A stretch of 62,949 bases of DNA, counting the filler, from Neolecta irregularis DAH-3 (lineage: Eukaryota), in assembly GCA_001929475.1 (NCBI GenBank). It is 16 parts of 16 records of this genome, joined end to end, with 100 filler letters (N's around TTAATTAATTAA, not from the genome) between each part and the next. Parts side by side here need not be neighbours in the genome. Positions count along the whole stretch, not along the records: positions 1 to 4,129 come from LXFE01001678.1; positions 4,230 to 6,113 come from LXFE01001680.1; positions 6,214 to 7,429 come from LXFE01001693.1; positions 7,530 to 11,085 come from LXFE01001695.1; positions 11,186 to 12,938 come from LXFE01001700.1; positions 13,039 to 14,933 come from LXFE01001701.1; positions 15,034 to 24,833 come from LXFE01001702.1; positions 24,934 to 26,220 come from LXFE01001704.1; 8 more parts are not named here. The stretch is one strand, 5' to 3'. Positions 1,167-50,727 of the stretch are shown here, in pieces. Under the pieces are notes generated by a model that was not told where the DNA came from, made no database searches, and saw only the letters and a list, made by a program, of their open reading frames with translations. The position numbers and the translations under genes were made by a program. Every line of letters begins with the position of its first letter. The stretch's first letter is position 1.

Positions 1167-3332
1167 ATGGATCAAAATGACCATATTAGGGAGGCTGCTA
1201 AGAACTGGCTCGCTTGGGATCAGGTAATTTCCTGCTTAAAGGAGTCTGATACTTATTATATGGAATGAATCAACTCGAACTGAAATCAAATCTCTTCTTG
1301 ATTCAGACGCCTTTGGTGAACTTTCTGACCGACTGCTATCGAGAATTGGGTTTGGTACTGCTGGTCTTCGGGGACGCATGCAAGCCGGCTTTGCCCATAT
1401 GAATGATTTGACAGTCATTCAAGCATCTCAAGTTGTCAATTGGCTATTTCTCAGATCTGATGAGTCAAGGGACTTTGTGCTTATATCCTTGGCAAAATTC
1501 CTGACGCCGCTGAAAAGGGCGTAGTTCTGGGCCATGACCACAGACATAATTCAGAGCAGTTCTTTTTATTGTCTGCTGCTGCTTTCCTCCACAAAGGCGT
1601 CAAGGTTCATTATTATCAAGATTATATCCATACCCCACTTGTTGTATGTGGGAAAGATGAACAAATTCAAGGGTTAATCATGATAGCCTTATGCCGTTAC
1701 TACTCTTGGAGCGGCCTGTGGTGTCATGATTACTGCTTCACACGTATGATAACCATTAATTATCATGACTCTAAGCGTTAGAACCCCGCCGCCGATAACG
1801 GTATCTGTACATATAGATACATAACTAAACTTTAGGCTACAAAGTGTAATTCAGAGGTTGAAGACATTGTTTCTCATTCCTTTGCAGGTACTGGTCGAAT
1901 GGGTGTCAAATTCTTCCACCTCATGATTCCGGCATTGCCAGTTCAATTCTCGAAAATTTGGAGCCATGGACATGGGGCTCGTGTTCTATTAAGAACAACC
2001 ACCTTGCTAGAGACTGTTCTGACTCTGTTCAAGAGTCTTATTTCTCGTCTTTACAAAGACTTCCTCTAAACAGGTTTTTCTTTCATTATGGTGTAAATCT
2101 AAAGCTCACAGGTTATGTGAATCTTACGAAAAGATCAAGTATGTGTATACACCTATGCATGGCACTGGTCTTCCATTTGCCAAGAGAGCATTTGTGGAAG
2201 CAGGGTTTGAGGATGGTATGATCTTGGTAGAACAACAAGCTTCCCCGGATCCCAATTTCTCTACCGTTAAATTTCCAAATCCCGAAGAGAGTGGAGCTTT
2301 AGTATGCGAATTACGTCAAAATTTAAAAATTTAATACCTGTAGGATTTAGCGATGAGGACTGCAGATTCTCACAATGTTGATATCGTTATCGCTAATGAT
2401 CCTGATGCGGATCGATTCAACGCAGCTGAGAAACACAAGTATGTATTGTTTTCGAGAGCTTGACCGATTTTTGATAGCGGTAAGTGGAAAATCATCAGTG
2501 GAAATCAACTCGGCGTTTTATTTGGCTATTATATTTTTCAAAAGTACAAGAATACGTGCTCTGGTTCGCTTAAAAAGTTGATAATGTTATCATCCGCCGT
2601 ATCAACTCGAATGCTCGGTAAGATTGCCGCTGCTGAGGGATTCTGTTGGGAAGAACGGCTTACCGGGTTCAAGCATCTCGGTAATGGAGCGCTTGAGCTC
2701 CAGGATCAAGGATACGATTGCCCATTTGCTTTCGAAGAGGCAATTGGCTATATGATCGGTGATATTGTCCGAGACAAAGACGGTGTCAGCGCTGCTGTAC
2801 AATTTCTCGAGATTGTCAAAGTTTTGAAAGCAACTGGGCAGACCGTTTGCGGACAATTGGAACAGTTATATGAAAAGTACGATATATTTTTGCAAGCATC
2901 TCACAGCCTAGATATGGATACTACGAGTCTTGTAATTCGTATTATATCTGCAATGATAGGCGAAGAATGCAAGATATCTTCAACTCAATTCGATATCAGT
3001 CCATTGATCGATCACATGTATCCTTTCCAACTCATGTTGGAAAACGTCAAATTTTGAAGGTTAGAGATCTTACTGTTGGATATGATTCATCAACGCCTGA
3101 CAACAAACCTCTCCTTCCCGTATCGTCCTCGTCACAGATGATTACGTTTGAGCTGGAAGACGATGTCGTTATCACGATAAGAGGATCTGGGACGGAACCA
3201 AAACTCAAGTATTATATAGAGGCGAAAGGGGAGAGTACTGACAAGGCGAGGAAGACTGCTGAAGAAGTGGATAAGGACATAGAGAAAGAATGGTTTTCTG
3301 CAGAAACAACGGGGTTGCGGAGGGACGATTGA
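1167..3332 (+). CDS. PGM2: Phosphoglucomutase-2/phosphopentomutase-type alpha-D-phosphohexomutase, about 9 introns
   Basis: Spliced motifs [67 protein letters not shown]. Confidence 0.95.
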
Positions 3333-4129
3333 TCAAGAAGGGTGGAACCTTGTAGCCGAAGAGTCTATGCGAGGTGAATATCTCAGATGCAGAGAGAACT
3401 CTCAAACACGACTTTGTGTTGGACGGCCAGTTATCTACTTTGTTCACTGGATCTTATTGAGTGCAAATGTCGATTCTGACCCAATTAGGCTGCATGGAAT
3501 AGCAGTTTGACGTTAAGACCTTTGACGAAGAGCTGGAACGTAGCGTCCGTAACAGGCGATTGCAAATTTGCGGTTTGGAATACAGTCTCATTGTCTGGAA
3601 CCGTGGAGGCTTAATGTGATATAAGGTCGGGTTCGGGTTTCGTAGTGGGAAAATAATAACTGTGTTTGGGAGATTGGTATCATGGGCCGCGGGTGAACAA
3701 TCAAATGAAAAGGCTTGAAGTATCTTCGATTTCTTATTCGAGAGGGATATCTAGAAGAGGACGGTCTAACCTCTCATATCCTCCACAGAACACGAGCCAT
3801 AAAAGGAGAAAAAATACAAACCAAAAATCGGGGGTATGCCTGGACTAACTCTCCCTAACCGACGATGACCTGTGTTAAATATTTGGGGCCACTAGCAGCG
3901 GTTGGGGGTCATCCGGGCATCCTGGACCCCATGGGAAGATGACTGAGATTCGTGGAACATTGAATTCTGAAGAGCATATTGCCGCATGTTGGTAGAAATA
4001 TTAAGAGGGGCGGGTATGGGTATTTATGGGGCTAGCTAATATAGAAATAATAATAGAGATGATGTGTGGGGACATAATCATGCCCCACGATCCGACCGTA
4101 CTGGCGCCTAGCAGCACAAGCGACTATGA

Positions 4130-4229
4130 NNNNNNNNNNNNNNNNNNNNNNNNNNNNNNNNNNNNNNNNNNNNTTAATTAATTAANNNNNNNNNNNNNNN
4201 NNNNNNNNNNNNNNNNNNNNNNNNNNNNN
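4130..4229. other. Artificial scaffold linker (44N-TTAATTAATTAA-44N), first of 15
   Basis: Identical 100-bp spacers with six-frame stops also at 6114, 7430, 11086, 12939, 14934, 24834, 26221, 40232, 41730, 50728, 52161, 54245, 57361 and 59160; 10-N gaps at 11359 and 44165. Confidence 0.98.
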
Positions 4230-4304
4230 CATTTTTATTCTCATTTTCAACATTCCATTTTCAACATTCCATTTTCAACATTCCATTTCAAATCAACCTC
4301 CACC

Positions 4305-5205
4305 ATGTCTGACGAAATAATCTGGCAAGTAATCAACCAAGATTTCTGCTCCTACAAACTAAAGTACAATCCCCTTTTTCTATCTAATTCTCTGAACTAC
4401 AACCCAAAACTTTTGTCGCAACGAATACAACGTCTCAGGACTATGTAATCGGCAATCATGTCCCCTTGCCAACTCAAAATACGCTACAATCAGAGAAAAA
4501 AACGGCATTTGTTACTTGTATATGAAAACTGCAGAACGCGCACACATGCCCAGTAAACTCTGGGAACGCATAAAATTAAAAGCAAACTATGAACAAGCCT
4601 TACAACAGGTTCGCTTAACCCTCCCTTCCAATTCACCAAATAGATAGACGATCGCTTGCTCTACTGGCCTAATTTCTTGATCCATAGATGCAAACAACGC
4701 CTTACTAAAATTACTCAATACCTGATAAAATCACGAAAACTCGCAGCCTCAAAACAACCGGTACTCATTGGAATCAAACCCAAAATCGAAAAGAGAGAAA
4801 AGTCACGCGAAAACAAGGCCTTGGCTGCTGCAAAACTGGAAAAGGCTATTGAAAAGGAACTCGTCGAGCGGTTGAAGAGCGGAGCGTATGGCGAGATGCC
4901 ATTAAATGTCCACGAACAAGTCTGGAAAAAGGTCCTACAACAGCGTGAAGCCGACACCCAAGAAATAACCGATGACGAAGAAATCGATCAACCCGATCAC
5001 GAGGAAGCAGAATTTATAAGTGAAGATGACCAAAGCGATCTCGAATGGTTTATACACGACCAAGAGGAATTAAACCACCAGTCTACAAAACGGAAATCGC
5101 AGAAATCAATAAATCGCCCAAGAAAACGTATATCCTTTATAATCATTCCTAACAATAGGTGTCGAAATTGAATACGAAGAGGAACGCGAAGCGATACTAA
5201 ATTAA
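4305..5205 (+). CDS. MAK16: 60S ribosome biogenesis protein Mak16, 3 introns
   Basis: [51 protein letters not shown]...[12 protein letters not shown]...VEIEYEEE. Confidence 0.96.
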
Positions 5206-6214
5206 ATACCATACAAACCCTCGTATCTATCCATACATTTCCATGTGAAATCTTTTATCCGTTTGCATTTCTACCATAAGAACTAAAACATATCCCATTC
5301 GTTTTTAATCAGTTGCCAGTGACAATTTGATGTATTGACGATGAGGACTTATCCCTACTTGGGACTGTCTCGACACTAATCGATCTCATGTAGTATTCTG
5401 AAATGTTTGGATTGAATATAACATACCAGCATCGTTTCTTATTTCCCGCAGTCGACGCATCTTTCAGTGACGACTACTTTCAACTATGTGACATCTACTA
5501 TCCAGGTACTCCATGAGACATCAAATCATACATCAGAGAATTAATTCCAGTTTGACTAGTTTAAGGAACAATAGCTTCAACAGGTTGCACGATCATTTCT
5601 TAAAGTTTAAGCTTACGGTACAGCTCACATTGCTCTTCTGATCCAGGCCTCAATTGATTCGTCGTATCTCCAGTAGATGGCAACCTCTTCCGAGACAAAT
5701 TCGTCATCCTTGCAGTTTAACATGCATCTAGTATTACTAAAGTACTTGGCGGAAGTACAATGCGACTCGGTTTATAGTACGTGATGGTTAGGTTCGCGTA
5801 CAATCGGGAAACATTTCCAAAGTCCGGGTTACCTTGGAGGGGATGACTAGGATAGATAGTAAATTGAAGAGAAACGCGCACAACTCTTCCAAGACTCACC
5901 AAATTCGACAGGATAGAGATTTAATCCAAAGGTAGCTCGGCGAATTTCATCATGAATTATTCCAGCGTTTGATGTATATCTTTGTCGCCTAAAAAGTTGT
6001 AACTGCAGCAGGTAAGAGAGCAGGCTGGCCCTCTCATACCACAACACAGGAGCGTATGGATGATTGTTGGGCACTGTCAGTGAAGTGAATAGCCACATAG
6101 CACAAGGCGAGGGNNNNNNNNNNNNNNNNNNNNNNNNNNNNNNNNNNNNNNNNNNNNTTAATTAATTAANNNNNNNNNNNNNNNNNNNNNNNNNNNNNNN
6201 NNNNNNNNNNNNNC

Positions 6215-6331
6215 CACAGAGACATAAAACCACAAAACCTCCTCCTCAACCCCGCCACAGGCGTCCTCAAGCTCTGCGATTTTGGCTCAGCCAAAATCCT
6301 CGTCGCCGGCGAACCAAACGTCACTCTATAA
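6215..6331 (+). pseudogene. Truncated GSK-3 kinase fragment
   Basis: [36 protein letters not shown] then TL-stop, where GSK-3 continues SYICSRYYRAPE. Confidence 0.75.
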
Positions 6332-6582
6332 TCCCGCTCTGTGATCCACAGTCGCTCTCGCAGCCTTCCGATGCCCAGCCGGCTTCTTCTGTGCCACTGG
6401 TGTCTCACTTGCTGCTTCGCTTAGATCACGGGTAAAGTCGCTACGGCGGCCTAGTACACCCACCGCGAGACAGGTGTGAGACAAGGAGCGACAAAAAGGT
6501 GGGAGTGTCTGGAACGTCTATTAAATACGGCCCGCCCAGCTTACATCTACACAATCCTCTACCCGCAGATACAACTATTCAC

Positions 6583-7429: not shown

Positions 7430-7604
7430 NNNNNNNNNNNNNNNNNNNNNNNNNNNNNNNNNNNNNNNNNNNNTTAATTAATTAANNNNNNNNNNNNNNN
7501 NNNNNNNNNNNNNNNNNNNNNNNNNNNNNCTGTCTCCCTGCCGCCCCGCCCCGCGCACATGCACCCGCACCCGCACCCGCCCCCGCCTGACCCGCCACAT
7601 CCAG

Positions 7605-11358: not shown

Positions 11359-11548
11359 NNNNNNNNNNGATTCTTTGTATCATCTGAGATAATAGACTTG
11401 TTCATTGTTGCTTATTAAGTAACACAGCCTGGAGTGTCACAACATCCGCTAGTGCACCTTGTGTAACCTGATCGAGTTCATGTAACCATCGAGGATCTTA
11501 GCTGTTTACACTCACGGAGTCCGTCGATATGTCTTTCAACATATCCAG

Positions 11549-12790
11549 ATGGTTGCCAATGTCTTATCAGAATTGAAGAAAGGAAATCTCACCATCAGCA
11601 TCGATAAATCTCAATTTGGACATGATATAGTAAATTTCCTCAGTTACCATGTTGGAAAACATGGTCGAAGTCCAATGCCTAAGAAATTGGACAAGATCAT
11701 AGCCTGGGCACCATGTAGGGATGTTAAGGCAATAAGAGGGTTTATAGGGCTCTGTACATATTACAGAGTCTGGGTACAAGAATTTTCTCTGGTTATGAGA
11801 CCTCTATATGACCTCACCAAGAAATTCGCAAGCTTTCACTGGGGTCCTAGTGAGCAGCGCGCTATGGACCACATGAAGGAGCTGCTATGCAAGGCACATA
11901 TTCTTTGTGCACTGTATTATGATCATAGGATCATCATCATGACTGATGCTAGTGAACAGGGATGGGGTACTGTTATACAACAGGAAGATGACGATGGGCA
12001 TAGTTACACCTGTCATTACGAATCAGGGACTTGGAACTCTGCCAAGCAGAAATACGCTACCATACAGAAGGAGTGTCTTGGCTTGGTAAAAGCTCTCAAG
12101 AAATTTCACTACTGGATCTTGGGCAACAGGATTACAATTGAAACTGATGCCCACACCTTACTATGGATGGTAAATCAGTCACCCAAGGATATGCCGAATG
12201 CCATGATGGTCAGGTGGTTGGCCTTGATACGCATGTACGATTTCGAGATCAAACATGTGCCAGGTCATAAAAATTCATTAGCGGACTTCCTTTCCAGAGA
12301 GGGTAACAGTGGGGAGGAAGAGACCAAGGAGGTCTTAGATAGTTTCATTGATTCTTCATTAGGTAGTTTTTCTATTCAAGTTTGTAATTCTGGTGTTGTA
12401 AATGAACCCTTCGCAGAAAGTCACTACAAAGGGGAATATTTGGAGGTGGGAAGATGGTTGAGTACTCTGACGAATATACCAGGACTCACAAAGGAGAAAA
12501 TGAAACATAGAAAAGAAAAGAGGAAAAACTACTTTATTAAAAATGGAAAAATATATAAAAATACTGACAAAAGAGGAGGAATACCCAAAAGAGTAATTGG
12601 GTGTAAGAAAGATATTAAGAAGATATTGGAGTGTGCCCATGAGTCATTGGGACACCGGGGAGTTGAAGCAGTAATGAAACTGCTCAACAGGAAATACACA
12701 TGGAGGAAGATGTTTGATGACATTCGGGCTCATGTAAAGAGCTGTGACAAATGTCAGAAGAGGAGGACGAATCAGAATGTGGATGTAAGG
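11549..12790 (+). mobile_element. Ty3/Gypsy pol remnant (RT C-terminus, RNase H, integrase HHCC)
   Basis: IRGFIGLCTYYR, TDASEQGWG, TIETDA, IKHVPGHKNSLADFLSR, H-ESLG-H...CDKC; breaks off before the DDE core. Confidence 0.92.
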
Positions 12791-13038
12791 GATGGCAGCA
12801 CCTGTGGTGTGAACACCTGTACAAAGACCTTTACATTATACCTGTGGTTTGAACACCTGTACAAAGACAAGATGTCACACTCACAGCTACATAATATATA
12901 TATGTACAAATATGTATGTTAATTAGGAACCTTAATTCNNNNNNNNNNNNNNNNNNNNNNNNNNNNNNNNNNNNNNNNNNNNTTAATTAATTAANNNNNN
13001 NNNNNNNNNNNNNNNNNNNNNNNNNNNNNNNNNNNNNN

Positions 13039-16139: not shown

Positions 16140-19043
16140 CTATGACCTGTACTGACCGTCATTTGAGGTGTCTAAGTATATTAGCGAAGTTTCCAAGCGG
16201 GAACATGCGTCTTCTATTTCTTCTGAAGTTATACTGAATCCGCCATGCCTTTCAAAATCATCATCGTAAAATTCTTCTTGAACCGAAGCTTCGAACTCCC
16301 TATTCTGAGCAAATTCATGACCTTCAGCCATCCTAAAGAATTAACACCAAATACGAAGACAAACTACCAATCCTCGTCATCATCTTCATCTGAACTACCG
16401 AATTTATCAGGAAGATCTCCTGTAATTTGCTGTGAGAAATATCGAGCAAACTAAAGGATGAAATGCTTTCCTTGTGTGTTTATTTCACCTGGTCACCATC
16501 CTCAAAAACACGCCCCTCCGGACCTTCTATTCCCAATTTTGACATCGCTCCAGTAAGATCATAATCTGCATTTACTTGACTGGGAGGAGGAGGAGGTTGA
16601 GGCCGAAACCCACCAAGAATCGCATTGTCTCTAGCTCTAGTTGCAACAAGTGTATGCTCGACATAATCGATCCATTCAGGTGCAGTGATCTTTTCGATGA
16701 CAAGCGGCGAAAGAGGTTCGCGTGCATATCTTTCGGTGAGTTTCACGACTTCTTCTGCAATTAGAGTTAGATGACCCATGTATCCTAATCGTACTCCGCC
16801 GGGCTGAGACCTATTTGTCAGCGGGTTTTTGACTCTAACTTACGACGATTCGTCGCTATTCTTGCTACCCTGAATGATTCGTTCGGTAATTCTTCCAGAT
16901 ACAAACACATCAATTGCGAGGTCTTGGTTGTATCCACGATCCATTGAACCGTTAAAAACCTGCTGAACGATATCGTAGACGACGTTATGCAAAAAGTTGT
17001 TCCAAGGAAATTGGAAGAAGAGATCCTGAATATCAGTAACTTCTCGTAATACTGCCCTACCAAAACCTTCGGTACAACACCAAACTTCACAAACTGCATT
17101 TTCAAGAAGTCACCTACTACGGGATCGGAAATCGCAAAGTCTTCTTCTTTGCAATTGTCCCCCTCCGAATCATGGTGTTCCTGAGTAGGTGTCTTATCAC
17201 CATCCCCACCCTTCTTCATCAGATCCCTTTGCCGATCCCTCATCAAAACAACGGCTTCACCTCGAGGATCATTCAGTAGCAGCATATTACTACAATGTAG
17301 AAGCTCAGCATATAACTCGCATATACGAAATCTTTCAAATCCCAGAGGTTGGATTTTTCCAAAGGTAGTTGAAATGCGAACTTCTGCAGCCTTCGGATTG
17401 TTCAGAAGTTTTTGAAATGACAAGAGACGCGAAGAAAATATACGCAGCATGGTGCCGAGGTAAATGGGATCACGGAGTGTAGGGGCTTTGTGGGTTTGTA
17501 ATAATGACATGACTGGCTCGGGATCGTAATCACTGCACATTTAGATTATCTCGATTGGGGAATGTTTACGAGTTGTTTTTGCGAATCAGTTCGATTATAA
17601 TTGAAACGCCGTTCGTAAGAGTTGCTGTTGAATATGGTGCGACTGAATGTAGCATATACTCAACTAAAGTCGTTATTGATTTTTCACCGACAAGTTCTCT
17701 CGATAGTGAGTTTGGTCCAATGCCTGATTGGTCATTTGCGTTTGCGCTGATTGCAATAATCGCTTTTAAAACGTCTGCGACTGTCGTCTGGATTTCTGGG
17801 TCGACCTGAGGATCCATTTGGGATATTAGTGCAGGAATAAGGCCTTCATCCTGGAGCCACTAAGGGTTGTTAGACAGGCAAACAAGCAGCTATACATCAA
17901 CAACTCCTCGGCCTGCATCAAACTTTTCCATGCTGATGATCTTGAGAAGAAGATCCATGACTGCCGAGGTATCAATGTGCGATAGTAACTTCGAGACGAT
18001 ATCCGGAAGGGACTGAATGAAGGAAACCATCTGGGAAAATCAACAATAATCTCATCTCAGAGATAATACCTCGTCAGTCTTCTTTTCCAGAAATTGCTCG
18101 TTTACTTTTGTGAAATAACTTGCCTGTAATGGATTTAGGGGGGGCTGACGGTCTAAAAACATCCAAAAATGTTGTAAGAGTTCGCGATTCTGAACAACGG
18201 ATTCGCATATACTCCATATTTCACAACACAACACTTCGCAAGCTGTGTATGAATATCTAGATTCTTGTTAGCCAACTGAAAAATTGGGATGAAAATGAGA
18301 ATAGCAAAATGATTCTAAGAAGGCTTCATAAGAAATTCGTGCGCCTAGTCTTGACCTTCTCAAACCGAGACAGATTTATGGAGACCCCCAGGCAGGAAAC
18401 TGGGCAGGGAGTTACTGGTTCAAGGATGATATCATCATTAGTGAATCGCAGCTCCAAGATTCTTTCAAATTTCTCATGGCAGAAGCCCGCAACTGAGTTC
18501 AAGGTATATCCTTTGTCCATAGTCGCCATCCATTTATTCATAGTCGCCATCCATTTATTCAAGTGCAGGACTCTCCTAAAATCCACAGTTGTATCCGAAG
18601 CCCAAAATAATTGGGCACACCTGATTCAATCGCTCGAAGAAAATTCAAATCTCGCATGATATTCTCCATGGTTGTTTCTTTGATAAATCGACCCAGTCTC
18701 AGTCCCACGGATGAACTCAATCAGGATAATGGCGATCGTGTCGAAAATTTACAGAACTGATGCCTAGTTCCGGAAAAAGGAAGCTACGAAAAGACTTACT
18801 TCATCTTTCCCTCGCCCTCCTCTACAATAAAGTCTAACAGTCGTCCCAAAACATTTGGATCTCTTAGATACTCGATCAATTTTGTATTATGTGCTTTACA
18901 TTCCTGTAACAAATCGTCTTCGTCGAGGATTTCTTCGAGAGTAACGTCCGGCTTGTCTAGCAAAGCGTCGATTGCGCTAACACTATGAAAACCGAAGCGC
19001 CAAAACTTGGAATATTAAACATGTAGTAGTAAAAAAGCACCAT
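16140..19043 (-). CDS. SAP190: SIT4/PP6 phosphatase-associated protein (SAPS family; Sap190/Ekc1), about 9 introns
   Basis: ATG-only first coding exon then FWRFGF...LEEILDEDDLLQECK; PLGFERFRICELYAELLHCSNM; FPWNNFLHN; LGYMGHLTLIAEEVVK. Confidence 0.93.
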
Positions 19044-28383: not shown

Positions 28384-31300
28384 TCATTCATTAAAAGCTA
28401 AAACATGCCAACAATCCGGAGACAGCAAAAGATATTGACTCATCGATTCTCGAAACCTGTTTTTGTATAATCGCGGCGTCACGACAGTCGGCTCTTTGCC
28501 GCCACGGCCAACAAACCCTCTCTCCTTGACCCAGCTTTCAAGTTTTTTATCCCACGTGTACGTTCTAATGTAATCAAACATAAGCAGCGACCGCTTCTTG
28601 ACATACCTATTATGCCAACCACAAGCTCATGCTGTTCGTCATCAATCCCAATAACAAGTGAATAGTCCATCACATTCACCTTGGCCAGGAAGAGAGTATC
28701 GTTCCAGAGCGACGCTCTTAATAGCCTTTTCGAGTGTTCACGTATAAATAACGGAGATTCGTAAATGACTAGACATGAGTCTTGACAACAAGATCCATAC
28801 ATTCTACCAAATTCTCGTCAAGCAAAACTTCGTTCTCTTTGCCCGTAGATTCCACATGTCGATTTCGCATGGAGCCTTTTAGATCGAAAATCTGCGCTTA
28901 GTCACTTGCAGGGGTCAAACATACTCGACTGACCTTTCGGTCGTAGAAAAGGTTTTCCATAACCATGATATTCATCTTTACTGTCTTTCCAGTGCTCGAA
29001 CTTCGAGTGTGGATCTGATAGAATCCCATGATTTTTGCCAATGCCGTCGGTAACTAAATGTAAGACCATCGCCGATTAACCAAAAAACTTCGTGGAAAAA
29101 AGCTTGGGCCATGAATTCAAAGTAGCACGGAGCAAATTTCATAAAGCTTTCTATTTCGAGTCTGGTCGTTCCTTTCAAAATGAATCGATTGTCTAGATTT
29201 AGAAAAGTGAAATGCTCAAGTACCATTAGTTTTGAGAAACGCAGAACCAGATTTCCCGCCCGATGAATCCCATTTCTTGCATCTAGCGAGTGACTGGATG
29301 AACGTTTCTGAGCAGCCGCATTGTTGTCTAAAGGCTTCAAATTGCTCGGCATAAAAGACCTTGCAAACCATCCTTGACTCGCCATCTTGGACTTCTACAT
29401 ATCAGCTCACTTGCAAAGTAACACATACCGCACTTCATGTGCGTTGCCGTTCCCTTTAATAAAATAGATTCCAACTCATTCACCGGTGGCAATTCTCTCG
29501 GACTGGTTCTCATACTCGAGATTTGATTCAGGTAAGCAGGACTCGCAAGAGTGAATGCGATCAAAGAACTCGGCTCGTCTTCTCGAACAACCACATCTGA
29601 ATCAGCGAATAAATGCTCAGATGGTGCTCTAATCGGTCAGCATGAAGAGATCAAATGACTACAATGCAGGTTCAAGGGGACTCCAGGTCGCTGCAGATCT
29701 ATCGGCCAGAAAATTCGTCAAGGTCTTCATGAACGAAGACTTTTCGAGGCATGGCCCGGCAAGCTCGCTGTCGCTGATGTGTCCGGTCGAATCAGGCGGA
29801 TACACAATCATTTGATTTCCGTCAACATATGGTCCAATCGGAGAAAGAATTTCAATGCATTCATCTACTGGTTTATTCTTGCTCAACGGATCTAAATTTG
29901 GTGCACTATCTTGCTGAATATCTTCGTCCTCGTCGTCCCAATGCTCATCTTCTGCTCCCTTGGAGTTGCTAAAGACTTCAATCATCGGCTTACAAGGTCC
30001 AATCGGTAAAGAACGAGGGATGCTGGCACGCAACACTTTGCGTTCTCGTGCCTTTTGCTGCTCGAATTCTTCACTTAGTTTGTTAAAGTGTCTGGTCAGA
30101 CTCGAAACCTTGGTAGCGCTGGAAGCTGGGAATAAGCGTGTTTGCTTGGCAAGTGCTGAGCGAACAAAACGGGCTTTTGGAGGAGGAAAGTGGTCTTGAG
30201 AATTGGCAAGTACTACTCGATCGCCCTCCCCGTGTTTGGGTTTCGATCGGGTGAAAACATTTGATACTTTTTGCCGAGGCTTGGAAAGCGAGTCCTCCTT
30301 GACTTTGCGTACCGGAGAACGTTCAGGATGCTTTAAAGTTTGGCCAGGCTGCTTAAAGTTTCGGAGCGAAGAGTCGTGTAGCTTTGACAGTTGTCGTAAT
30401 TTGCCATGCCCTCTGGTGTGTGATTCAGGACTGCATTCCCCAGAAGTTTGTAGAGGTGTATCTATAGAATCAGATCTCAGAGTTTCGTCATCAGTTTTGT
30501 CTCCGTCCGTGGGACAAGTCTTGGGTACAAGATTATCTGCCAAGGTTTCCTCCTCGGGAACGATGACGGGAGATGCACGACTTGATTCGCTCAAATCCTT
30601 TTCGTCTGCATGTACGGTCGTAATTTCAGATTCAATTTCAAAAGACGGCTTCTCAGTTGTCTCGCTGGAATAAGGCGAGTCCCGCTCAGCGAAAAGTTTT
30701 CGAAACTGCATGGCGGTCAAATGACGTATATCCTTATCCGATAAGAAGAAACGATCGTCAAGATCTGCAAAGTACCGATCCCATTTAATAACACGCTCTT
30801 GAAGTCCTCGGAATGCCTTGCTCAAACTTAATGAGTCGCGGATACCCGAGTTTACAAATGTCTCACGCAATTGAGAATGCAATAATTGACGATCTTCCAG
30901 AGATAGCTTTTGTAAACGCAATATTTCAGACTGACACGGCTCAATTTTGTCGGCTGGAATTTTGTCCGTTCGAATTGACTTGCACCGTTTTTCCACAGAA
31001 TCAAAGAACCGACTAATTCGTCCCTCTAGTAAATTGTATTCTTCGAATTTTGAAACAAGAAGCGACTGTAATTTCCATTCGAGCGTAAGATTTGGCACCG
31101 ATACTCCAAACAGCTGGATTGAATCATATTCGAATCGAACAGCCCAATTTTGATATCCAAAGTACCGCAAGTGATCGCGATTGATGTTGTGCGGACACAT
31201 GCCGGCACGAGTCTTCAATCCCGTGTCGTAGAACGAGAGTTCGAGAAATTTTCCAAAAGAGTATTTCCAAGTATTCTCCGGCATCGCTGTAACAGGCAAA

Positions 31301-34300
31301 TTCAATTTGCAGATTTTACAATAGCTCCACATCAAGATGCTTTCTTGCATTCCAGGGAGTGGACTCGGGACTTTTTCAAGCACGACACTTACCCGGGCGT
31401 CTCCGTGAACGTAGCATCGATAATGCTCAAAAGATCGCTTATCACATCCATTAGCTGTACAGATAGCGTGAGACTCAAAGCTCATGTCTTCGACATATTG
31501 ACCCAAAGCACAATCACTTTCGCGATAATATTCGATCGCGTGAATTTCTGGTCCTTGACAGGGAACAGCAGTAACAGAGCAGACCGTTGAAAAAAGTACG
31601 ACCAGATTCTGATGGACTAGGGGGCTGAGTATATCTGGTGTTTGCGATAGAAATGAGGTCCACTGTTTTTCGCGTTCCATTAGCAGATGCATGGCCTTTT
31701 TGAAAACTGACGTGCGTAGCGCATTGCGTATAGTAATCTCGAGGATATCTTTCCACTGAGTATCCAGAGATACTGGAATGTAATTCTCTGCAACTTGTTT
31801 CATAACTACTAGAGCGTCCTCTATTGGATGCAACACTTCCAATGACTGGTTAACACCGTTATCTTTCATACTATAAGCTTCGCGGCTTGAATCAAGCATG
31901 AATTGGAGAAGATATGGCACAGGAAACTTGACGACTGGTGAAACAGATAAAATCGTGGCATCGAATTTAGCGATCGCGGACTGTGCCTTGTCTCTGGATC
32001 CTGGACGTGAAAGAGGAAACTCGATCTTGTGGTCTATTCTTGTCGATTCAGTGGTAGGATCAACCTCCACGCTGACGGGCAATAGTGCAAACTGATCTCG
32101 TATAAGGGCAGTTTCCAATTTCAAATTGTTTACGGCAAATACCATGAAATCCAAGACACGTTTGACGTTTGTGAGGAAATCCATAGAAGCGCCACGGAGA
32201 ATAACTGTACATCCAAGTTCTTCTCGACAGCCTTCTAGCCACATGAATGACTTTTTATGCCCGGGAAAATCATCACACAAATACGTTCGTACAGAAATCT
32301 TTGAACATTTACCAACTTTAGGACCGAAAGCAAGTCGATCGATCGATGCGATGATATGAGCTTGCGTTAGACGAGCGACAGCTTGCAACACTGGCATTTT
32401 GACGTTGTAAGCAACTGCGATATTTGCTTCATCGAGAAACTTCAAGGCGATGCCTGAAACGCTTCCTTCGACGAGGACAATATGTGGTCGAAGCGCGATG
32501 ATGCGGTTCACTAGATTTCGGAGGTACTCGTGTTCCTGGGCGATGACTGGTTCCAATGACATGAGCTTTGGTTCTTCACGGTGATATTCGATGGGGAATG
32601 CAATTATAACGATTCGAGGACTGTCGATAGACCGAGACATTCGCTTAAGCGCTAGGTTCTTGGTAAACACAATACCATTAATATAACGAGTATCTTTGGG
32701 ACTGCCTCCAGAAATTCGTTTGATTTTTGCATAATGACGAATATCGAGATCGTCGCCATTGCGAACATCTGGACGAATTGTGTCGGAAATCTTCAACAAG
32801 ATGGGCATTAATGCGTCTTCCCATGGAGCAGTCGGTTCAGGCGTTATTTCTTGTAATAACTGGATTAAAAGACGACGAAGGTGCTGTAGAGATGCGGCAT
32901 TGAGTTCGACGGTTGGACCAGCCACTGGTTTTGCAGCTATTGGTCGAGAAACTTTGATTGGGGTTGTTGAATTCTGCGCGGCAGCTAATTTCAAGTTATC
33001 GAGAGACTGCAAGCTTGTGCTCAAGCGATGAATAAGGCTCTTGGATTTAGCTCTGACCGGCCGAGCTTGGCTGATAGTATTGCGACGGGTGTTTTGAAGA
33101 ACAGGACCGACATTTGATCGAACATCAGAGGCTGCAATGCGAAGCCTGCTATTGTTTCTGCGCTGGTTTACTCGTGGTGGTCTACCGAGGCGTGTAGATT
33201 CGGCAATGGAAACTGCGTCGGCCGGTTTGGCCATGATGGCGGAAAATAACGAAATACTCGGATCATCTTCTGCTTCTTCATCGCTCATATAAGGCGCGAG
33301 TTCTGGATCGACGATTGAGTGGGGATGGACTGTAGGGAAATTCCCATCTTCGTCTATCGCGTATCTCCGAAATGGCGCCGGTGTGGCTACGAAATCATCG
33401 TTCGCGAATGCCCATTTATGGCGACCAGATGCATATGTAGCTGGCACGTTAAGACGAGACCTTGCAGAAAAGGACTTTGAAGAAGATGGCCTAGGTTTTC
33501 CAGATTCGACATCATGTATTGCGGGAAATTCTACAGTACGGTGTTGAGTATTTGTTCCATCGTCGCCAGCCACTCGTGTTGCGGGGATGGCCATCATTGG
33601 AGTTGATACTGGTTGTTGATCAGGACCAAGTGAGAAGGGATTAGTGTCGTATGAATAGGAAGATACTGGAGTGAGAGATTGAGGCGGCTGAGCGAAATTG
33701 TCGTCAGTTTCATGGTATTGATCCATAATTTGAAGGCATGTCTTGCATACGCGAAGGAATTGACTTGAATTGCCGATACGGAAGCGGCCGCCTGTAATCA
33801 TGGCGGTACATTTTGAGCAAAATATTTGTCCTAGGGTTTAGTATCGATGGCGATATATATTATTACCACAAATTCCTGACAGTTAGCGAAATTGAGTCTA
33901 GACATACGGCAATGATGTTTGCGTCTCCAAGCTGTGAATGAAGAGTCGCATAGAAAACAAGCATGGCAATTCTCGTTTTTCATCCAATACTCTCTGCCCA
34001 GATGACCAGTCTTTAGTCTATCCAAAACATGGAGAACGGTAGTTTGTGGTGTCAAAACAAAGTTTATAGATTGAGATTCGGATTCGCTTGACGGTTCTCT
34101 TTCTAGTGCAAATCCGGGTAAATGCTGCATTACTTTTGTGAAGATTGGTTGTGATGGTGGAGGAGGACCGGTAAAGGTTGGACGATTCAAGTTGAGTGTT
34201 TCAGCGGGGTTTTTGGACGATACAGTAACGGGGGCAAGGACGGGTTCTAGATGGTTTCTGGCCCTGTTCACATTAATTTTTTCTTTTCGAGGCTCATCCA

Positions 34301-34685
34301 AGCTCGAACGTGATGATTGGATGGATCCTGCAGGAGTAGAGGCATGTGCTGGAACGGACTTTTTAGGGGTGTGAAAGGGAGAAGGGGAGTGGATCTGGGG
34401 CAAACCGGGCAGACCTATGCTGACGGGGCTTGGGGGAGGCAGCACTGATGGGGCGGGCGAAGTGGGAGAGGACAAGCTGCGCTGTAGGCCTGTTTTGACT
34501 TTTGAGTAGAGACGGTCGATCAACGACGAGTCATGGAGGTCGACAATAGTGATTTTTCGATGTGTGGGAGCCGAGTACGTGTCAGGGAAACTGGTTAGTG
34601 AAGAGTCATGGAGGTCGACACTGGTGGTTTTTCTGTGTGTGGGAGCCGAGTACGTGTCAGGAAAACTGGTTAGCGAAGAGGCCAT
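28384..34685 (-). CDS. FAB1: 1-Phosphatidylinositol-3-phosphate 5-kinase (FYVE, CCT-like, PIPK), about 9 introns
   Basis: WM...CFLC...[63 protein letters not shown]. Confidence 0.97.
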
Positions 34686-38197: not shown

Positions 38198-38303
38198 GAT
38201 TGAGAAGAGGGGAGTTTAATATCCACGTGCATCAAAATCTATCTGTACACACGTGCATCAAATATATCTGTATATCAAAAGTATACAGTGAATCAAACTA
38301 AAG

Positions 38304-39822
38304 TCATTCTATATTTATTTGGAGAGCTTGCAGGGTTGCTTCGGCAGCGATAATCTAGAATTAGCACGGACATTATGATTCGTACCTCTAGGGCCTGTTT
38401 TACTTCTAGGTGACGACGAGCCATGGTTAGCCAGTCTTGTGCAAGGAGTCTCGGCCAACCAGAAAGCTGGTTGATTTCGCGGGCAGCTTGGTCTAGATTA
38501 CTGTTTTCGAGATGGAATTCTACTCGTGCGAGGATACTGGGTATATCATTATCCTGTGGGAGACCTCTTTTGCGGAAGAGGAACTTTGAAAAGATTGTGC
38601 TTGATGCGTGGCCGGCGACACCCGAGTTTTCGGGCAGGAGACCTGTAGACTTGATTGCGTGTGCGAGTTTGTGGAAGCGGTGGTTGAGGGCTGTAAGAGG
38701 TTCTATTGCTTGATTTGGGTCCACGGAGGAGAGTGCGGTGCGAACGAGGGCGTTTTTTCCTGAAACACAGGTGAGTGCGTGGAGTTCATTAGAGAATGAC
38801 GACTGTTGATCGATGGCGGTGTGCAAAGCGCCAAGGGCGAGAGAGAGTTTTTGTGATTTTATAAAAGAGTCGAATAGGGCGTTTTGGGATGCGGAGAGTG
38901 TAGAGAGTTGGAGGAGGCCCTTTTGCAGAGCGTCCAAGCGTGCGAGGCGGTTTCCGCGTTCTTGTTCGATGCGTGCTTTTAGTTGGCGATTCCATCTGCG
39001 TTGAGCACGTATTTGCAGATCTGCAAGTTCATTTTGGAGTTTTTGGTGGGCGACATTTTGAATGTTTAGGATTTCAGCGCCCAGGCGTCGCTCATAGTCT
39101 CTTGTAAGATTTTCGCGTTCTATTTCCAATTCTCTTGCCCATCGCTGTTGCTGGAACTGGGTTGCTTTGTCTAGCTCAGCAGACTTTTCATGGAAAGAAG
39201 CGACTAAATTTGCGAGGTCTATATCTGTGGAGTCTTGCAGAATATTTGCGAGGGAAGCGATGAGTGATTTTGAATCGGTGAGGATAGCGGGGGAAGGAGG
39301 AGAGTTTACGTTTGCAGCGTCGATGATTGCATTTAAGTTGACCAGGAGAGGATGCAAGCGGGGGTCGTGGCCGGCCAAGTTTATGGGTTGGATGGGGGAA
39401 GGGGAAAAGCGGGAAGAGGGAGTCTGGGGAGCGGGGAGGAGGGAGGTTATGTAGGCGATGGAGCGGTCAGCGGTGGGGATGTGAGTTACGAGCCAGTCAG
39501 CGAGGGAGTCGTTGTGGAGGGAAGAGTAGATGGCAGCGGCGTAGGCGGCGAGGAGGGAGAGAGCAGAGAGAGCAGCGAGCGAGAGTTTTGAGCGGGAGCG
39601 AGCGGAGGGAGGGGTAGATGGAGGGGTAGCATGGATAGATGGAGGGGTGGTAGCAGGGGCAGCAGGTGGAGGAGTATGGAGAGAGGGAGGGGAAGTAGGA
39701 CGGGCACCAGGTGGAGAAGGAGTATGGAGAGAGGGAGGGATAGATGGAGGGGTAGTATGGAGAGAGGGAGGGAGTGAGCGGATGGGACGACAGACACGCA
39801 GACTTTGGCGGAGGAGAGGCAT
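38304..39822 (-). CDS. MIC60: MICOS subunit Mic60/mitofilin, 1 intron
   Basis: Presequence [12 protein letters not shown], transmembrane segment, coiled coil [32 protein letters not shown] mitofilin domain. Confidence 0.93.
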
Positions 39823-39850
39823 TGGGGCAGACACGCCGACTTGGAGCAAC

Positions 39851-40231
39851 ATGGCCACCGACCGCGCGGCCTCGCACAGCGGCACCTGGTACGCGAGCAA
39901 CGCCGGTCTCCTGCAGCAGAGTCTGGGCGCATGGCTGGCTGCTGCTGGACTGAGTAGTCTGGGCAGCCAGTGTAGTCTGGGCGGTGCAGACAGTACTCTG
40001 GGAGGCACTGGACTGGCCAGCACTGGACCAGACACTACCACTGGACTGACTGACACCCCGACCAGACTGACTGACGAATTGCCTACCACCAGACAAGGTC
40101 GAGTCATCATTGCCCCCCACGCGGGCTTCGCATACAGCGGCCCGACTGCGGCACACGCTTACGCGCGCCTGCACTGGTCGTCCCACACCCGCCGTGTCTT
40201 CATCCTCGGCCCCGCGCATCACCTGCGGCTC
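39851..40231 (+). CDS. MHO1: MEMO1-family protein, N-terminus (truncated)
   Basis: [41 protein letters not shown]. Confidence 0.9.
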
Positions 40232-41729: not shown

Positions 41730-41829
41730 NNNNNNNNNNNNNNNNNNNNNNNNNNNNNNNNNNNNNNNNNNNNTTAATTAATTAANNNNNNNNNNNNNNN
41801 NNNNNNNNNNNNNNNNNNNNNNNNNNNNN

Positions 41830-45763: not shown

Positions 45764-46127
45764 CGCCAGCCGTAAATGATGTAGTTCACCAGATAATTTT
45801 GTAATTCAATGTATTTTCAGTTTAATGAGTATTGACTTTCTCGCACCCTCCGTACAAATGACGTCTTCTATGTTTCTTCCTGTCTGTATGACGCAATTTG
45901 AGTCATTAATATACTGCGAATCAATTTTCGAATATTTTGCTGTAGTCGTGATAATTCGGAATTACGCGTGCGTGACCTTAAAACCTAGCCTAGCACGTCA
46001 TGCTACCACACAAAGGAGATTGCTTTGTATAAGCCCATTGGTCATTTATAGAAACAGCCTCTTTTCCAGATAGAACAGATGCCTAAAAAAATCCCAAAGT
46101 ACAAACCCTTCGCCCACCGAGTCACAG

Positions 46128-48229
46128 CTACTTGCCCCAAATCCCATAAATTTTCTCGCTAAGTGCATTTCCAATGCTTTTCCGTCCATATCCTTGAATA
46201 GACTTTGCAATCAACATCTTCTTATCCATTTCGTCTCGGCAACTGTTGTAGGAATCTAACAAATGTCTTGGTGTAGGAAACACTTTTTGAATTTCAATTG
46301 CCTTTTCGGCAGAGACACCACGAATCGTCAACAACATCTTTAGAAATATATCGGCAAGCGTGAGAGCCCCGTTTTTAGAGGTTATTTGCGCGAAATCGGA
46401 CAAGGGGATCGTGTACCTCTTATTCGGATCATCGCGACGGAGATCAGAGCGTAGAGTATGGTAGTTGCGTGAGGAAACCTGACAACTAGGGATGATATGT
46501 AAAGACTCGGTCTACAGGTAAGATAAAGAATGGCTGGAATGAATACACTGTATAATTGCTTTAACTGCTTTGAGAGACGACATAGATAAGTTACTGTTCC
46601 TTCGATGTTTGGAACTCTTTTGACAAAGAATCCGTTCTGGACTTGAGAGGATGATATCGCTGTTTCAATTGCTTCGCGATAAGACGACAATTTATCCATA
46701 TTCGTTTCTTCGATAACGTAAATAATTTGTTTGATGCCAGACTTGGTCAGTCGGAACTTGACTTAGGCGTCATTTCATATTGACGAGTATACCTTTTGTT
46801 CATGGAATCGCCCATCCTTGATACTTGAAACCAAATCATCCATTCGTTTTCGTTCGACGATATAATCTAATATGTACTCTTGTCCATCAAGACTATCTTT
46901 AGCAATCCATAATATATCACCAATGTCGAGGGACCGAACGAAAACATCAATTCCGCTTTGTTCTAATCCTTCGACAAAAAGCTTTCTCTCTCTCTCAGAA
47001 CGGACTTCTCGGACATCTACCACGATCTGGACGGTATACCTCCCAGCGGGGATGTAGGAAGATGGAAGTTTGGAGGCATCATTTGGTAAAGATTGACAAG
47101 TTGAAGATAGTGATTGCGGTGCCGATTGCTCAGAGAGGTTGGGTGATAGTGGTATTGGTTCCCTTGGAGCTGCGTCTGGCCGAACTGGAGCAGCTTCTAA
47201 TCCCAGATTCAGAGAAGTCGGTCGATTTCGAGATGAAGCAGGTTCTATAGTCGTCTTTGTAGCAGTTGATATATTTCTTGATAGATCATCGTCCGACCCA
47301 ACATAATCTTTTGGTCCAAGTGAACTCTTGCCTTGTAAACTGACACATACATCTTTGACTATCAGTTCTTCGGTATTAATACGTGTTTCAGATGTCTTTT
47401 TAAACATGGATCGATCGGCGGTAGGTAAACTTTCGTTCGTAGAACTACCAGTCACGGGCCCACTCGTATATTCCAAGTTATTTATTGTGGCTTCTGCTTC
47501 TTCAATCTTGCGACAAGTCTCTATTCCCTCTTCAGTAAGGCAATATCGCGCTGGATTTCCATTCTTGTAAACTAGATTCTTCTGCTCGAGGATTTTCATT
47601 CCATGCCAGGCGGTGTAATATCTGCTTTTTTCTGTGGGAATATCAAAACTGGAATCACTGAATGGAGCTGCCAAACGAATCAATTCGGCCTTGTTAATTG
47701 ATTGGTCGTCCGCAAGGCTTCCTAGCGCCCGGAGAAGAGCGTATGGGCCGGACCGCTTGGCAGGAACATATGTCTTCGTCTTTGTAACTCGAGCTTTTCG
47801 TTTCGATACTTCCTGTGATTGAGACTGTAGCTGTGAACTTTGTAGTTGATCATCATCTTCTTCTTTTCAAAGTGAGCGCCGAGCAACTGAAATGTGAAAT
47901 ACCGGGTACAATGGTTTGAGATGGGTGTGGAGGCATAACGAGACCGTTTGCTTTACAGTGTGCTTCTAATCGTGTTTCAAGGCGTTTGCATATATTCGGG
48001 CCGATTCCTTTCAGACATGCTGCTTCGGAAGGATGATTAAACGGAAGAGGACAACTAGAGAGTTTATAATGTATTACGCTGATTCATACATCTTCATGCT
48101 GTCATATGCCTTCTTGAGAACATAGTAACCCTTGCTTGAATTTGTGCCCCTTGTAGCTTCCTTTTCCATCATTTCTTTCAGAAATTCAAGAAGTAATGGG
48201 TTTCCACAACCCGGTTTTGTTGTTTGCAT
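46128..48229 (-). CDS. MUS81: Crossover junction endonuclease Mus81, 4 introns
   Basis: CGNPLLLEFL, HhH GIGPNIC, winged-helix YVPAKRSGPYALL, VDVRE, ERKRMDDLVSSIKDGRFHEQK. Confidence 0.96.
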
Positions 48230-48466
48230 TGGTAAATATCAACGACAATAAATCGTATCGCGATCACGGAGTAATCAACCTCTGAGTGTCCAACAACAAG
48301 ATACATGATTAGTAATTATCCATCCTCTAGTTTAATTTATCAGGGATTGACTGTGATTAATTTCTTGAATGACGTGTACTATGTCGAAATCCGCTTATCG
48401 CAGAGGCTGACTGGTCAGTTTCCCCGGTTCGTACTCCTACTTTCGAAATTGATACCTTCATTTCCC

Positions 48467-50727
48467 ATGTCAAGTGACGCCCGCTTCTTCGCAAGGGTAA
48501 CCTTGTGTCTTTAATTTTGTTTGATGTCTAGGGTAAAGTCCAGGAACTCCGCAATGAACTCCAAATGGAGAAAAAGGAGAAGAATCTTAATAAAAAGCGG
48601 ACGGTGTTGAAAAAGGTATACAATCATTTGAATTATTTGATTGATGGGATATATTGTCGCGAATATGACCATGTCAAATGACATGTCTCCATTGTTTCCA
48701 GAGATCATCCAGTGTATGGCTCTACCAGATTTGGGAATCAAGAAAATGTGTTTTTTATACCTGACGAATTATGCTCGGTATAAATCCAAAATTCAAACTA
48801 CAAATAACGTGCTAGTTTGAAACCAGACATTGCCATGAAAGCTCTTCCAATATTACTTCGTGTACGTTTTTGTATCAATGGCGAGTTTGATTGAAGGACT
48901 TTGATGACATCAACCCATTAATTCGAGCCCTCGCGTTACGGACGGCATCATATATGAACGTCCCAGACGTTATTCGATCTCTGTTTGATCCAGTGTCTGA
49001 TTTGATGGGAGACCCGGACCCTTATGTTCGAAAGACAGCAGCAATGTCTGTAGCTAAGATGCACCATTATGATCCCCAGGGCGTAGTGAACAAAGGACTG
49101 GTAAATGGACTCAAAGATCTCCTTGGAGATGCTAATTCAACTGTGCCCTTGCTATTTTTGATATACTTTCTTATTATGCTAGGTTGTTGCGAATGCGTTG
49201 GCAAGTCTAATGGATATTCTTTCACGAACCGAAGGAATGAAATTGAATCTTGATTATACGATTTCGACTAAACTTGTTTCCGCGTTAAATGAATGTTCCG
49301 AATGGAATCAAACGTATATTCTCGAAGCATTGATGCATTTCACGCCCAAAAATTCGCGTGATGCGGAAACGTTGGCCGAGAGAATTGCGCCGAGACTTCA
49401 ACATGCTAATTCAGGGGTTGTCTTGACTTGTACTAAAGTCATTATTGCTCTTACAAACTATATTTCCAACGAAAAGGAGGTTACTCTGCTTTTTAAAAAG
49501 TTGATACCGCCGCTAGGTATTTCTTTGCTTTACACATTACTTACGAACAGTCACGTTATTGGCTAGACCTCCAGAAGTGCAGTTTGTTGCATTACGTAAT
49601 GCTCATTTAATTTTGCTTAAACGGCCGGATGTTTGGAGAAACGATATCCAACTATTCTTTTGCAAATACAATGACCCGATATATGTCAAACTAGCCAAAT
49701 TGGAGATCATCGTACGTTTGGCGAACCGAGACAACATTTCCCAAGTTTTAAATGAGCTGAAAGAGTAAGATTTGAAAAAAGTGCCGATTAACAAGCAAGG
49801 TATGCTACGGAGGTGGACGTTGATTTTGTGCGTAAAGCGGTACGATCGATAGGACGGCTAGCGGTAAAAATCGAAACTGCGGCACGGGATTGTATTTCTG
49901 TTCTTTTGGAGCTAGTTTCGACAAAAGTCAGTTACGTAGTGCAGGAAGCGACTGTGGTGATTCGAGACATTTTTCGCAAGTATCCGAATCAATACGAATC
50001 TATTATCGCGACGTTGTGTGAGAACTTGGATAGTTTGGACGAGCCTGAAGCCAAGGCTGCGATGATTTGGGTGATTGGGCAATACGCTGATCGAATTGAA
50101 AACTCTGATTTGCTGCTGGATGATTTTTTGTTTTCGTTCAAGGAGGAGACTATTGAAGTGCAGCTGGCGCTATTAACGGCGACTGTGAAGCTCTTTATTC
50201 AGAGGCCGACCAAGGGCCAGGATCTTGTGCCCAAGGTGCTGAAATGGGCGACCGAAGAGTCTGACAACCCCGATCTTCGCGACCGGGGGTATATGTATTG
50301 GAGGCTGCTTTCTATGGACACGGGGGCGGCGAAGCAAATCGTGATGTCTGAGAAGCCCCAGATCACGCTGGAGAGGGACGAGATGGACGAGGAGACGCTG
50401 GAGAAGATGTGTCTGCAGATCGGCTGCCTGGGGAGCGTGTATCACAAGCTGCCGGAGCAGTTTATCAGAAACGGCAAGTCGAGGACGCTTCCGGACTCGC
50501 CTGCGCTTGTGAGGCACGGCCGGAGTGGACTGGCGCTGTCGGTCAACACGCTCAGTGTCCAGGAGCCTAGTAAGTATGTTTGTGTGCCGTTGCGTGACGG
50601 GGAGGCTGACGGAAACAGCATGGCGCCGTCGCCGTCGCCGGGGGGCTACACGGGATGCGATCCGAGCGCGCTTGGGTACCGGCAGGAGAACCACATGCTT
50701 GGCGTGGGCGAGCCGATCGAGCGGCGG
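48467..50727 (+). CDS. APL1: AP-2 adaptor complex beta subunit, 7 introns, 3' end at linker
   Basis: [63 protein letters not shown]. Confidence 0.9.

Follow-up and report, generated by a model that had tools for sequence, protein, structure and literature searches.

Four short introns of the fungus Neolecta irregularis DAH-3 (Taphrinomycotina) begin with a GT donor and end in UGG, CUG, UUG and UAU instead of AG, and with a probability of about 0.8 we regard them as genuine short U2-type introns whose non-AG ends are functional, these ends being the sole available 3' site for three of the four. They interrupt a PGM2-family gene (phosphoglucomutase/phosphopentomutase-like), MAK16, FAB1 (a phosphatidylinositol 3-phosphate (PI3P) 5-kinase) and a beta-adaptin gene that a preliminary description of the same DNA had called APL1. 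All four lie in a window of 62,949 nt, the whole stretch of DNA that was analysed; it consists of 16 short contigs (1.2-13.9 kb) separated by 15 linkers, each of 44 N, a 12-letter stop linker and 44 N, and positions are counted along it. The sites had been proposed in the preliminary description, and their coordinates, GT donors and non-AG ends are all confirmed in the window sequence; the lengths (31-40 nt) likewise agree with its statement that none is divisible by three (0/4). The introns are:

1224-1263, plus strand: first coding intron of the PGM2-family gene, 40 nt, GT...TATATGG, phase 0, from an RNA contig
4364-4394, plus strand: first intron of MAK16, 31 nt, GT...TCTCTG, phase 2, from homology
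28575-28606, minus strand: last intron of FAB1, 32 nt, GT...TGTTTG (UUG), phase 1, from homology
48616-48652, plus strand: second intron of beta-adaptin, 37 nt, GT...GGGATAT (UAU), phase 0, from homology

Direct evidence of splicing comes from the PGM2-family gene. Both DNA and RNA from fruiting bodies of N. irregularis were sequenced for the genome paper (PMC5309816), and two public runs hold words of the window, amounting to 0.96 (run X1) and 0.63 (run X2) of the words sampled. Both runs carry the label 'DNA?', and X2 is taken as RNA-derived from its intron-less contig alone; contigs of the two were compared with a single window contig, at 1-4129, which carries this gene:

1167-3332, plus strand: coding sequence of the PGM2-family gene, 11 exons, 591 amino acids, from the X2 joints

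The X2 contig (3403 nt, depth 98.9) lies on the window in pieces with 11 joints that correspond to 12 introns, of which 11 are GT..AG and one, at 1224-1263, is not. Of ten of the joints, nine skip 35-43 nt each and one skips 86 nt with 9 micro-exon letters in between; the GT..AG assignments follow from the computed ends, and the micro-exon case was read from the sequence. The remaining joint, from 1222 to 1263, skips 40 nt with one ambiguous letter, so that the intron reads either GG..TG or GT..GG, the latter being 1224-1263. Its shorter side is 97 letters long, and the contig coordinates are contiguous across it with no extra letters. As the contig lacks 12 intron-sized pieces it must derive from spliced RNA, whatever its label, and because it is joined exactly at 1224-1263 the non-AG junction of the PGM2-family gene is real at the RNA level; N. 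irregularis can therefore splice at unusual intron ends. The transcript given by the X2 joints is a single open frame of 591 codons that matches the Pfam PGM_PMM domains I, III and IV, while a search of solved structures with exon 2 gave no match. Three canonical alternatives are available for this intron, all of them contradicted by the RNA contig.

For the other three genes the junctions were placed by a protein-to-genome aligner in which intron ends were left free, at a cost of 16 points per intron with a further 12 for a donor other than GT or GC and 10 for a non-AG acceptor; ten homologues were aligned for MAK16, six for FAB1 and ten for beta-adaptin. Canonical alternatives were enumerated as all pairs of GT or GC donors and AG acceptors that leave the upstream and the conserved downstream frames open. 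The preliminary description held that each junction restores a conserved motif, and the joins are indeed free of indels in the alignments of all three genes; on this evidence only the non-AG junctions appear to keep the invariant motifs intact. The MAK16 gene is:

4305-5205, plus strand: coding sequence of MAK16, 4 exons, 267 amino acids, open from ATG to stop

In spite of the 10-point penalty, the intron at 4364-4394 was called with all ten MAK16 homologues, as was the GT..AG intron at 4609-4643; a third intron, at 5128-5158 in a poorly conserved tail, was called with two of the ten and yields the complete 267-codon frame. The protein matches Pfam Ribosomal_L28e and solved Mak16 chains. Directly 3' of the CUG lies an in-frame T-x-T-Q-N-F-C, and across the join no indel separates the protein from the consensus of 119 homologues (K in 113, T in 111, T in 98 and Q in 101). 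The alignment of exon 2 with solved Mak16 chains starts at residues 22-24 of the chains, which corresponds to residues 21-23 of the rebuilt protein. There is no canonical solution at all (0), AG being absent from the donor to +44, and read-through meets a stop, with a TGA at 4393-4395 just ahead of the conserved exon frame.

For beta-adaptin the gene runs to the end of its contig:

48467-50727, plus strand: coding sequence of beta-adaptin, at least 8 exons, frame open, cut at the contig end

Here the non-AG intron was called with nine of ten homologues, and six GT..AG introns with 7-10 of the ten. The join restores [VL]-K-K-[VI]-[IV]-A-x-M-T (K in 89, K in 81, A in 90 and M in 92 of 108 homologues), and the exon that follows corresponds from its first residue to positions 30-70 of Pfam Adaptin_N. 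No AG occurs within the intron or in the next 49 nt. The 13 canonical alternatives are all introns of 88-205 nt that delete at least 17 conserved residues. Two exact-match scans of metagenome contigs, made with uninterrupted exon sequence beside the MAK16 and beta-adaptin junctions, gave no match.

Two observations on the deposited proteins concern both of these genes. Among the best 120 matches listed there is no protein identical to MAK16 exon 4396-4644 or to beta-adaptin exon 48891-49250; both seem to be absent from the deposited proteome or differently modelled there, while N. irregularis FAB1 is present, and short contigs, a contig end or the non-AG introns are possible causes. The best MAK16 match among the 120 (P0001, 406 residues, labelled Papilio machaon; 164 bits as against 131 for the next) is unusually long for a Mak16, and its rank as closest relative of an exon from a fungus is surprising; it may reflect a duplicated domain or a contaminant.

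FAB1 differs from the other three in having an AG close by:

28384-34685, minus strand: coding sequence of FAB1, 10 exons, 2000 amino acids, rebuilt frame open
28565-28566, minus strand: alternative AG, 10 nt 3' of the FAB1 UUG, used in the deposited model P0121

The intron at 28606-28575 was called with five of six homologues; seven GT..AG introns were called with all six, and one more falls at either of two positions (four and two of the six). The join restores G-I-I-D-[CY]-I-R-T without an indel, with D, R and T each conserved in 68, and I in 63, of the 68-69 homologues (out of 119 given) that cover this position; about 50 are gapped at the join because their cropped ends stop short. From its second residue the last exon corresponds to positions 246-287 of the 288 of Pfam PIP5K. 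Further upstream in the gene, a 1392-codon frame at 29662-33837 (minus strand) is 100% identical to P0121, the deposited N. irregularis DAH-3 1-phosphatidylinositol 3-phosphate 5-kinase fab1, and its next match, from Saitoella, is 41% identical. The deposited model pairs the consensus donor with the AG at 28565, giving a 42-nt intron that shifts the frame, and a non-homologous, out-of-frame tail of 29 residues takes the place of the final 62 conserved residues, which are the end of the kinase domain. It is also without eight residues, G-S-A-F-L-K-T-N, that the homologues place in the kinase domain. On account of the frameshifted tail and these missing residues (28482-29395, minus strand) at least two of its junctions look wrong, and the annotation mis-models at least one gene with a non-AG intron.

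Canonical alternatives for the FAB1 intron number 71, nearly all of them large deletions. The only near one takes a donor at +4 and the AG at +10, which gives an in-frame intron of 38 nt and replaces D-Y-I-R by G-I. FAB1 is the weakest of the four cases because of this AG, and both ends may be used; we favour the UUG site because the bases that follow it encode invariant residues in frame, which would not be expected of intron sequence.

Taken as a set, the four introns resemble the canonical introns of the same window in their length, in their branch site and in having a pyrimidine at -3. The comparison uses 34 supported introns, 12 from the RNA contig and 22 from homology, three of the latter in a SAPS gene picked regardless of its intron ends; this is a biased sample, since a non-AG site was the reason for choosing four of the five genes. 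All four non-AG introns start with GTA, and so have the GT donor of U2-type introns, and lack the 3' AG of that type (GG, TG, TG and AT), each end being one substitution away from it. Predicted branch sites of the form YTNAY are present in each, namely CTGAT 14 nt from the 3' end in the PGM2-family gene, CTAAT at 7 nt in MAK16, CTTAT at 6 nt in FAB1 and TTGAT at 12 nt in beta-adaptin. In the 30 canonical introns the best YTNAY lies 6-14 nt from the 3' end (median 8), and these introns are 31-43 nt long (median 35.5) as against 40, 31, 37 and 32 nt for the non-AG four. A pyrimidine occupies position -3 in 4/4 non-AG and 27/30 canonical introns. The first exon base is A in 4/4 and 9/30 respectively (Fisher p 0.015, a post hoc comparison). 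Counted from the intron end, the next AG is at +43 in the PGM2-family gene, +44 in MAK16, +10 in FAB1 and +49 in beta-adaptin.

U12-type introns have a rigid donor, /[AG]TATCCTT, and a TCCTTAAC-like branch site. Neither motif was found in the four introns, whose donors are GTAATT, GTACAA, GTATGT and GTATAC. All four ends (UGG, CUG, UUG and UAU) belong to the classes BG and HAU, written in the usual ambiguity codes. Even sampling from the 15 non-AG dinucleotides would give this with a probability of 0.005, and sampling from the single-base neighbours of AG with one of 0.20, so that it is not significant on the latter basis. That these are the classes activated when Prp18 is lost, as the preliminary description stated, agrees with Roy et al. 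(2023; PMC10711555). A tandem of TG and AG, with the AG within 28 nt, is seen in FAB1 alone and is lacking in the PGM2-family, MAK16 and beta-adaptin genes.

The frequency of such introns can be estimated from a strict, AG-only ab initio gene finder, whose 24 models contain 95 canonical introns. It missed none of the canonical coding introns known in the four genes that it could reach; the count is rough because the finder also makes false calls. The resulting total of 95 plus 4 agrees with the 90-100 introns that had been counted by eye. Four in about 99 corresponds to a 95% interval of 1.1-10%, and the probability of four or more is 2.4e-4 at a true rate of 0.3% and 0.018 at 1%, the 0.3% background being an assumed, generous value and not a measurement. 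The rate of a few percent suggested earlier therefore roughly holds in one 63-kb window, on a denominator that is itself an ab initio count. When non-AG ends were allowed, the same finder recovered the PGM2-family, FAB1 and beta-adaptin sites, two of the three with a displacement of 3 nt, but not that of MAK16. It made nine further non-AG calls, most of which fused separate genes or brought a gain of less than 4 bits, and none was counted. No further convincing non-AG site emerged from the finder. Two other counts were discarded, namely a first gene finder that was far too permissive (1396 introns on both strands) and a count from signals only (282 non-overlapping candidates at threshold 6, as against 207-254 in five dinucleotide shuffles).

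In a test of adjacent open frames a canonical bridge was present in 77 pairs and nine were flagged as having none; in the one of the nine that was examined, a cis-prenyltransferase gene, a middle exon and two GT..AG introns explain the gap. The three introns mapped in the SAPS gene were found in ten of ten alignments and are all GT..AG. In the stretch of that gene from its first exon to an exon near 18264 (18799-18260, minus strand), the ten homologues give differing introns, some of them non-AG.

Several points weigh against reading the four as functional non-AG introns. RNA evidence covers one of the four sites, that in the PGM2-family gene, and being an assembled contig it demonstrates the presence of the junction and cannot exclude other isoforms. 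Homology fixes the MAK16 and beta-adaptin junctions to about one codon only, in each case within a range that has no AG. At FAB1 the AG at +10 could be used in part or mostly. Run X1 is possibly the source data of the assembly itself and so not independent of it. The gene finder is crude, looser settings having given four false in-frame introns among 13 in the PGM2-family gene. Finally, scores for donor, branch site and length with the acceptor term left out (6.9-10.4 for the non-AG and 2.5-11.5 for the canonical introns) make a slightly circular comparison, because the training set of the signal model contained the four introns.

If the four introns are spliced as proposed, their geometry may be what permits it. 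Introns of 31-43 nt would place the branch A only 6-14 nt from the 3' end, and after the first step so short a tether would put only a few nucleotides into the exon-ligation site. In the yeast C* spliceosome the canonical contacts are those of the last G with the first intron G and of the -2 A with the branch A. With no AG in reach, a site with a pyrimidine at -3 and one of these contacts might be docked and ligated and not rejected. The consequence would be weak second-step proofreading, suggested by the ligation of non-AG sites and arising either from an altered factor or from the geometry alone.

These two sources lead to different views of the organism. On the first, exon ligation would be naturally relaxed in N. 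irregularis, and perhaps in early-diverging Taphrinomycotina, through a lost or diverged second-step factor, with several percent of introns ending constitutively in YBG or YAU where there is no nearby AG. We put this forward tentatively, as something possible but rather doubtful. Candidate factors would be Prp18, Slu7, Prp22, Fyv6 and the Prp8 alpha-finger, and the lineage, with its ultra-short introns, would show in the wild type what deletion of prp18 produces in yeast.

On the second, the spliceosome is ordinary and the cause local: such ends, which would have arisen from AG by point mutations that were tolerated, would be ligated by any fungal spliceosome, provided that the tether is 6-14 nt long, that no AG competes, that -3 is a pyrimidine and that exon +1 is A. 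A short distance from branch to 3' end, the lack of an AG and the exonic A account for the data no less well than a relaxed spliceosome, and we take a purely local cause to be a serious possibility that still falls short of even odds. That every end is one substitution from AG speaks for it, as do the A at exon +1 in all four and the lack of an AG for 43-49 nt downstream of three, and in yeast the use of weak 3' sites is favoured by adenosines in the exon and by U tracts upstream (PMC10711555). Against it, human TG sites occur only beside an AG, and AG>TG mutants activate other AGs (PMC2374985); moreover, four in about 99 is well above fungal rates, where some 98% of introns are GT-AG (PMC7072748).

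We consider it improbable that the three sites without RNA evidence in fact use other, canonical junctions, their proteins being truncated or lacking conserved residues as in decaying or mis-read genes. The deposited FAB1 model does use the AG at 28565, an in-frame 38-nt GT..AG pair is also present there, and no deposited model among the best 120 matches listed backs the MAK16 or beta-adaptin joins. However, invariant residues stand in frame after each of these ends (D-Y-I-R-T in FAB1, I-V-A-x-M-T in beta-adaptin and T-x-T-Q-N-F-C in MAK16), MAK16 offers no canonical solution, beta-adaptin would need an intron of at least 88 nt where all 34 supported introns are 31-43 nt long, and the one site with transcript data, in the PGM2-family gene, used its non-AG end.

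Sequencing or assembly errors at all four acceptor dinucleotides, which the fragmented assembly (window contigs of 1-14 kb) and the single substitution that separates each end from AG might suggest, are very improbable in view of the 199-fold coverage (PMC5309816), the intact long frames such as the 1392 codons in FAB1, the single exon position at which the RNA contig differs in about 3.2 kb, and a transcript join exactly at a non-AG end, which errors cannot explain. The X1 DNA contig (3724 nt, depth 457.7) spans 370-4093, a match of 3.7 kb that takes in the PGM2 acceptor, with no difference from the window and no gap, and lists no variant at 1262-1263 at a 5% threshold. The published assembly as a whole comprises 14.5 Mb with an N50 of 16 kb and 5,546 genes (PMC5309816). 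The preliminary description had judged random errors unlikely, and for the PGM2-family gene the X1 match and the RNA join support real bases; it had also named an AG in raw data, or canonical junctions in cDNA, as grounds for abandoning its view, and at this site the X1 contig keeps the non-AG bases and the sole transcript contig uses the non-AG end.

The contig with the PGM2-family gene has some further features. The two introns that make up the 86-nt joint enclose a very small exon:

1836-1845, plus strand: micro-exon of the PGM2-family gene, 10 nt, flanking introns of 35 and 42 nt, from the X2 letters between 1801 and 1888

Two more GT..AG introns, at 509-549 and 1086-1126 (plus strand), lie 5' of the start codon in the X2 contig, which extends to base 1; the 5' leader may be long and spliced, or the contig may have taken in a second transcript from upstream. 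The sole exon difference listed in about 3.2 kb is at 2954, where X2 has C and both the window and X1 have T, which may reflect the strain, an allele or a change in the RNA. The contig ends (1-400 and 4065-4129) are G+C-rich and of low complexity, with an X1 depth of 2000-4000 as against 457.7 (5-9 times) and many loose ends and alternative joints in X1, from which we infer a dispersed repeat.

Elsewhere in the window, a 478-codon frame at 11486-12919 (plus strand) has RT RNase H-like and integrase zinc-binding domains and is a pol fragment of a long terminal repeat retrotransposon. A G+C-rich frame of 621 codons at 38296-40158 (minus strand) has a Mitofilin (MIC60) domain and no apparent intron, and its neighbours are intron-dense. 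The 39-42 kb bin has a G+C content of 59% as against about 45% elsewhere.

The terminal AG of introns is among the most invariant signals of eukaryotic genes. Non-AG ends are known in humans as no more than rare alternatives beside an AG, and in yeast as errors that appear once proofreading is disabled. If the present interpretation is true, a wild fungus has UGG as the only productive 3' site of a housekeeping gene, and probably CUG, UUG and UAU in others, and would offer a natural system for studying both the choice of ligation site and the fidelity needed by a spliceosome that works on introns of 31-43 nt. There is a practical consequence as well, in that gene predictors restricted to AG break such genes, as in the tail of the deposited FAB1, and comparative work that uses the N. 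irregularis annotation for intron positions or proteomes (e.g. PMC7940399; PMC8476143) inherits the errors.

The closest precedent is Saccharomyces cerevisiae without Prp18, in which non-YAG 3' sites are activated genome-wide, BG and HAU being the commonest (Roy et al., 2023; PMC10711555). UGG, CUG, UUG and CAU were confirmed there by reverse transcription PCR, CAU and UAU are the best-used sites that do not end in G, and Prp18-sensitive sites tend to be branch-proximal and are aided by upstream U and exonic A (PMC10711555). The Neolecta ends fall into the same classes, but the yeast sites are minor, mostly non-productive, adjacent to an annotated AG and seen in a mutant, whereas those of Neolecta appear productive in conserved genes of a wild fungus and are the only possible site in three.

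Human TG 3' sites share with the Neolecta sites a U2 intron, a GT donor and ligation at UG; every human TG site described by Szafranski et al. (2007; PMC2374985) is an alternative to an AG at most 28 nt away, and none stands alone. The FAB1 site, with its AG at 10 nt, resembles such a TG-AG tandem, while those of the PGM2-family, MAK16 and beta-adaptin genes differ in having no AG within 43-49 nt.

Among fungi, introns are about 98% GT-AG, with GC-AG, AT-AC and rarer pairs making up at most 2%, and minor combinations of ends are rare and often artefactual (Frey & Pucker, 2020; PMC7072748). A catalogue of 130 fungal genomes also lists ends other than GT-AG, GC-AG and AT-AC, and treats them as rare, often as artefacts (such as CT-AC from antisense transcripts), and as tied to low expression or pseudogenes; we saw no treatment of N. 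irregularis there, supplementary tables aside. Nor did the literature on Neolecta introns, spliceosome or splice sites, again apart from supplements, yield a description of unusual intron ends. A nearer parallel is the cyanase gene of Saitoella complicata, in which an intron with a canonical donor and branch site and no canonical acceptor was built by hand from protein homology (Linder, 2018; PMC6292966). Saitoella is, like Neolecta, an early-diverging member of the Taphrinomycotina, and its case hints that the trait may extend more widely in that group; it is a single, anecdotal and homology-based example that was not treated there as a property of the lineage. Non-AG 3' sites as such are already known, and what N. 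irregularis would add is a wild-type fungus in which they serve alone as the productive end of introns, and do so at a percent-level rate.

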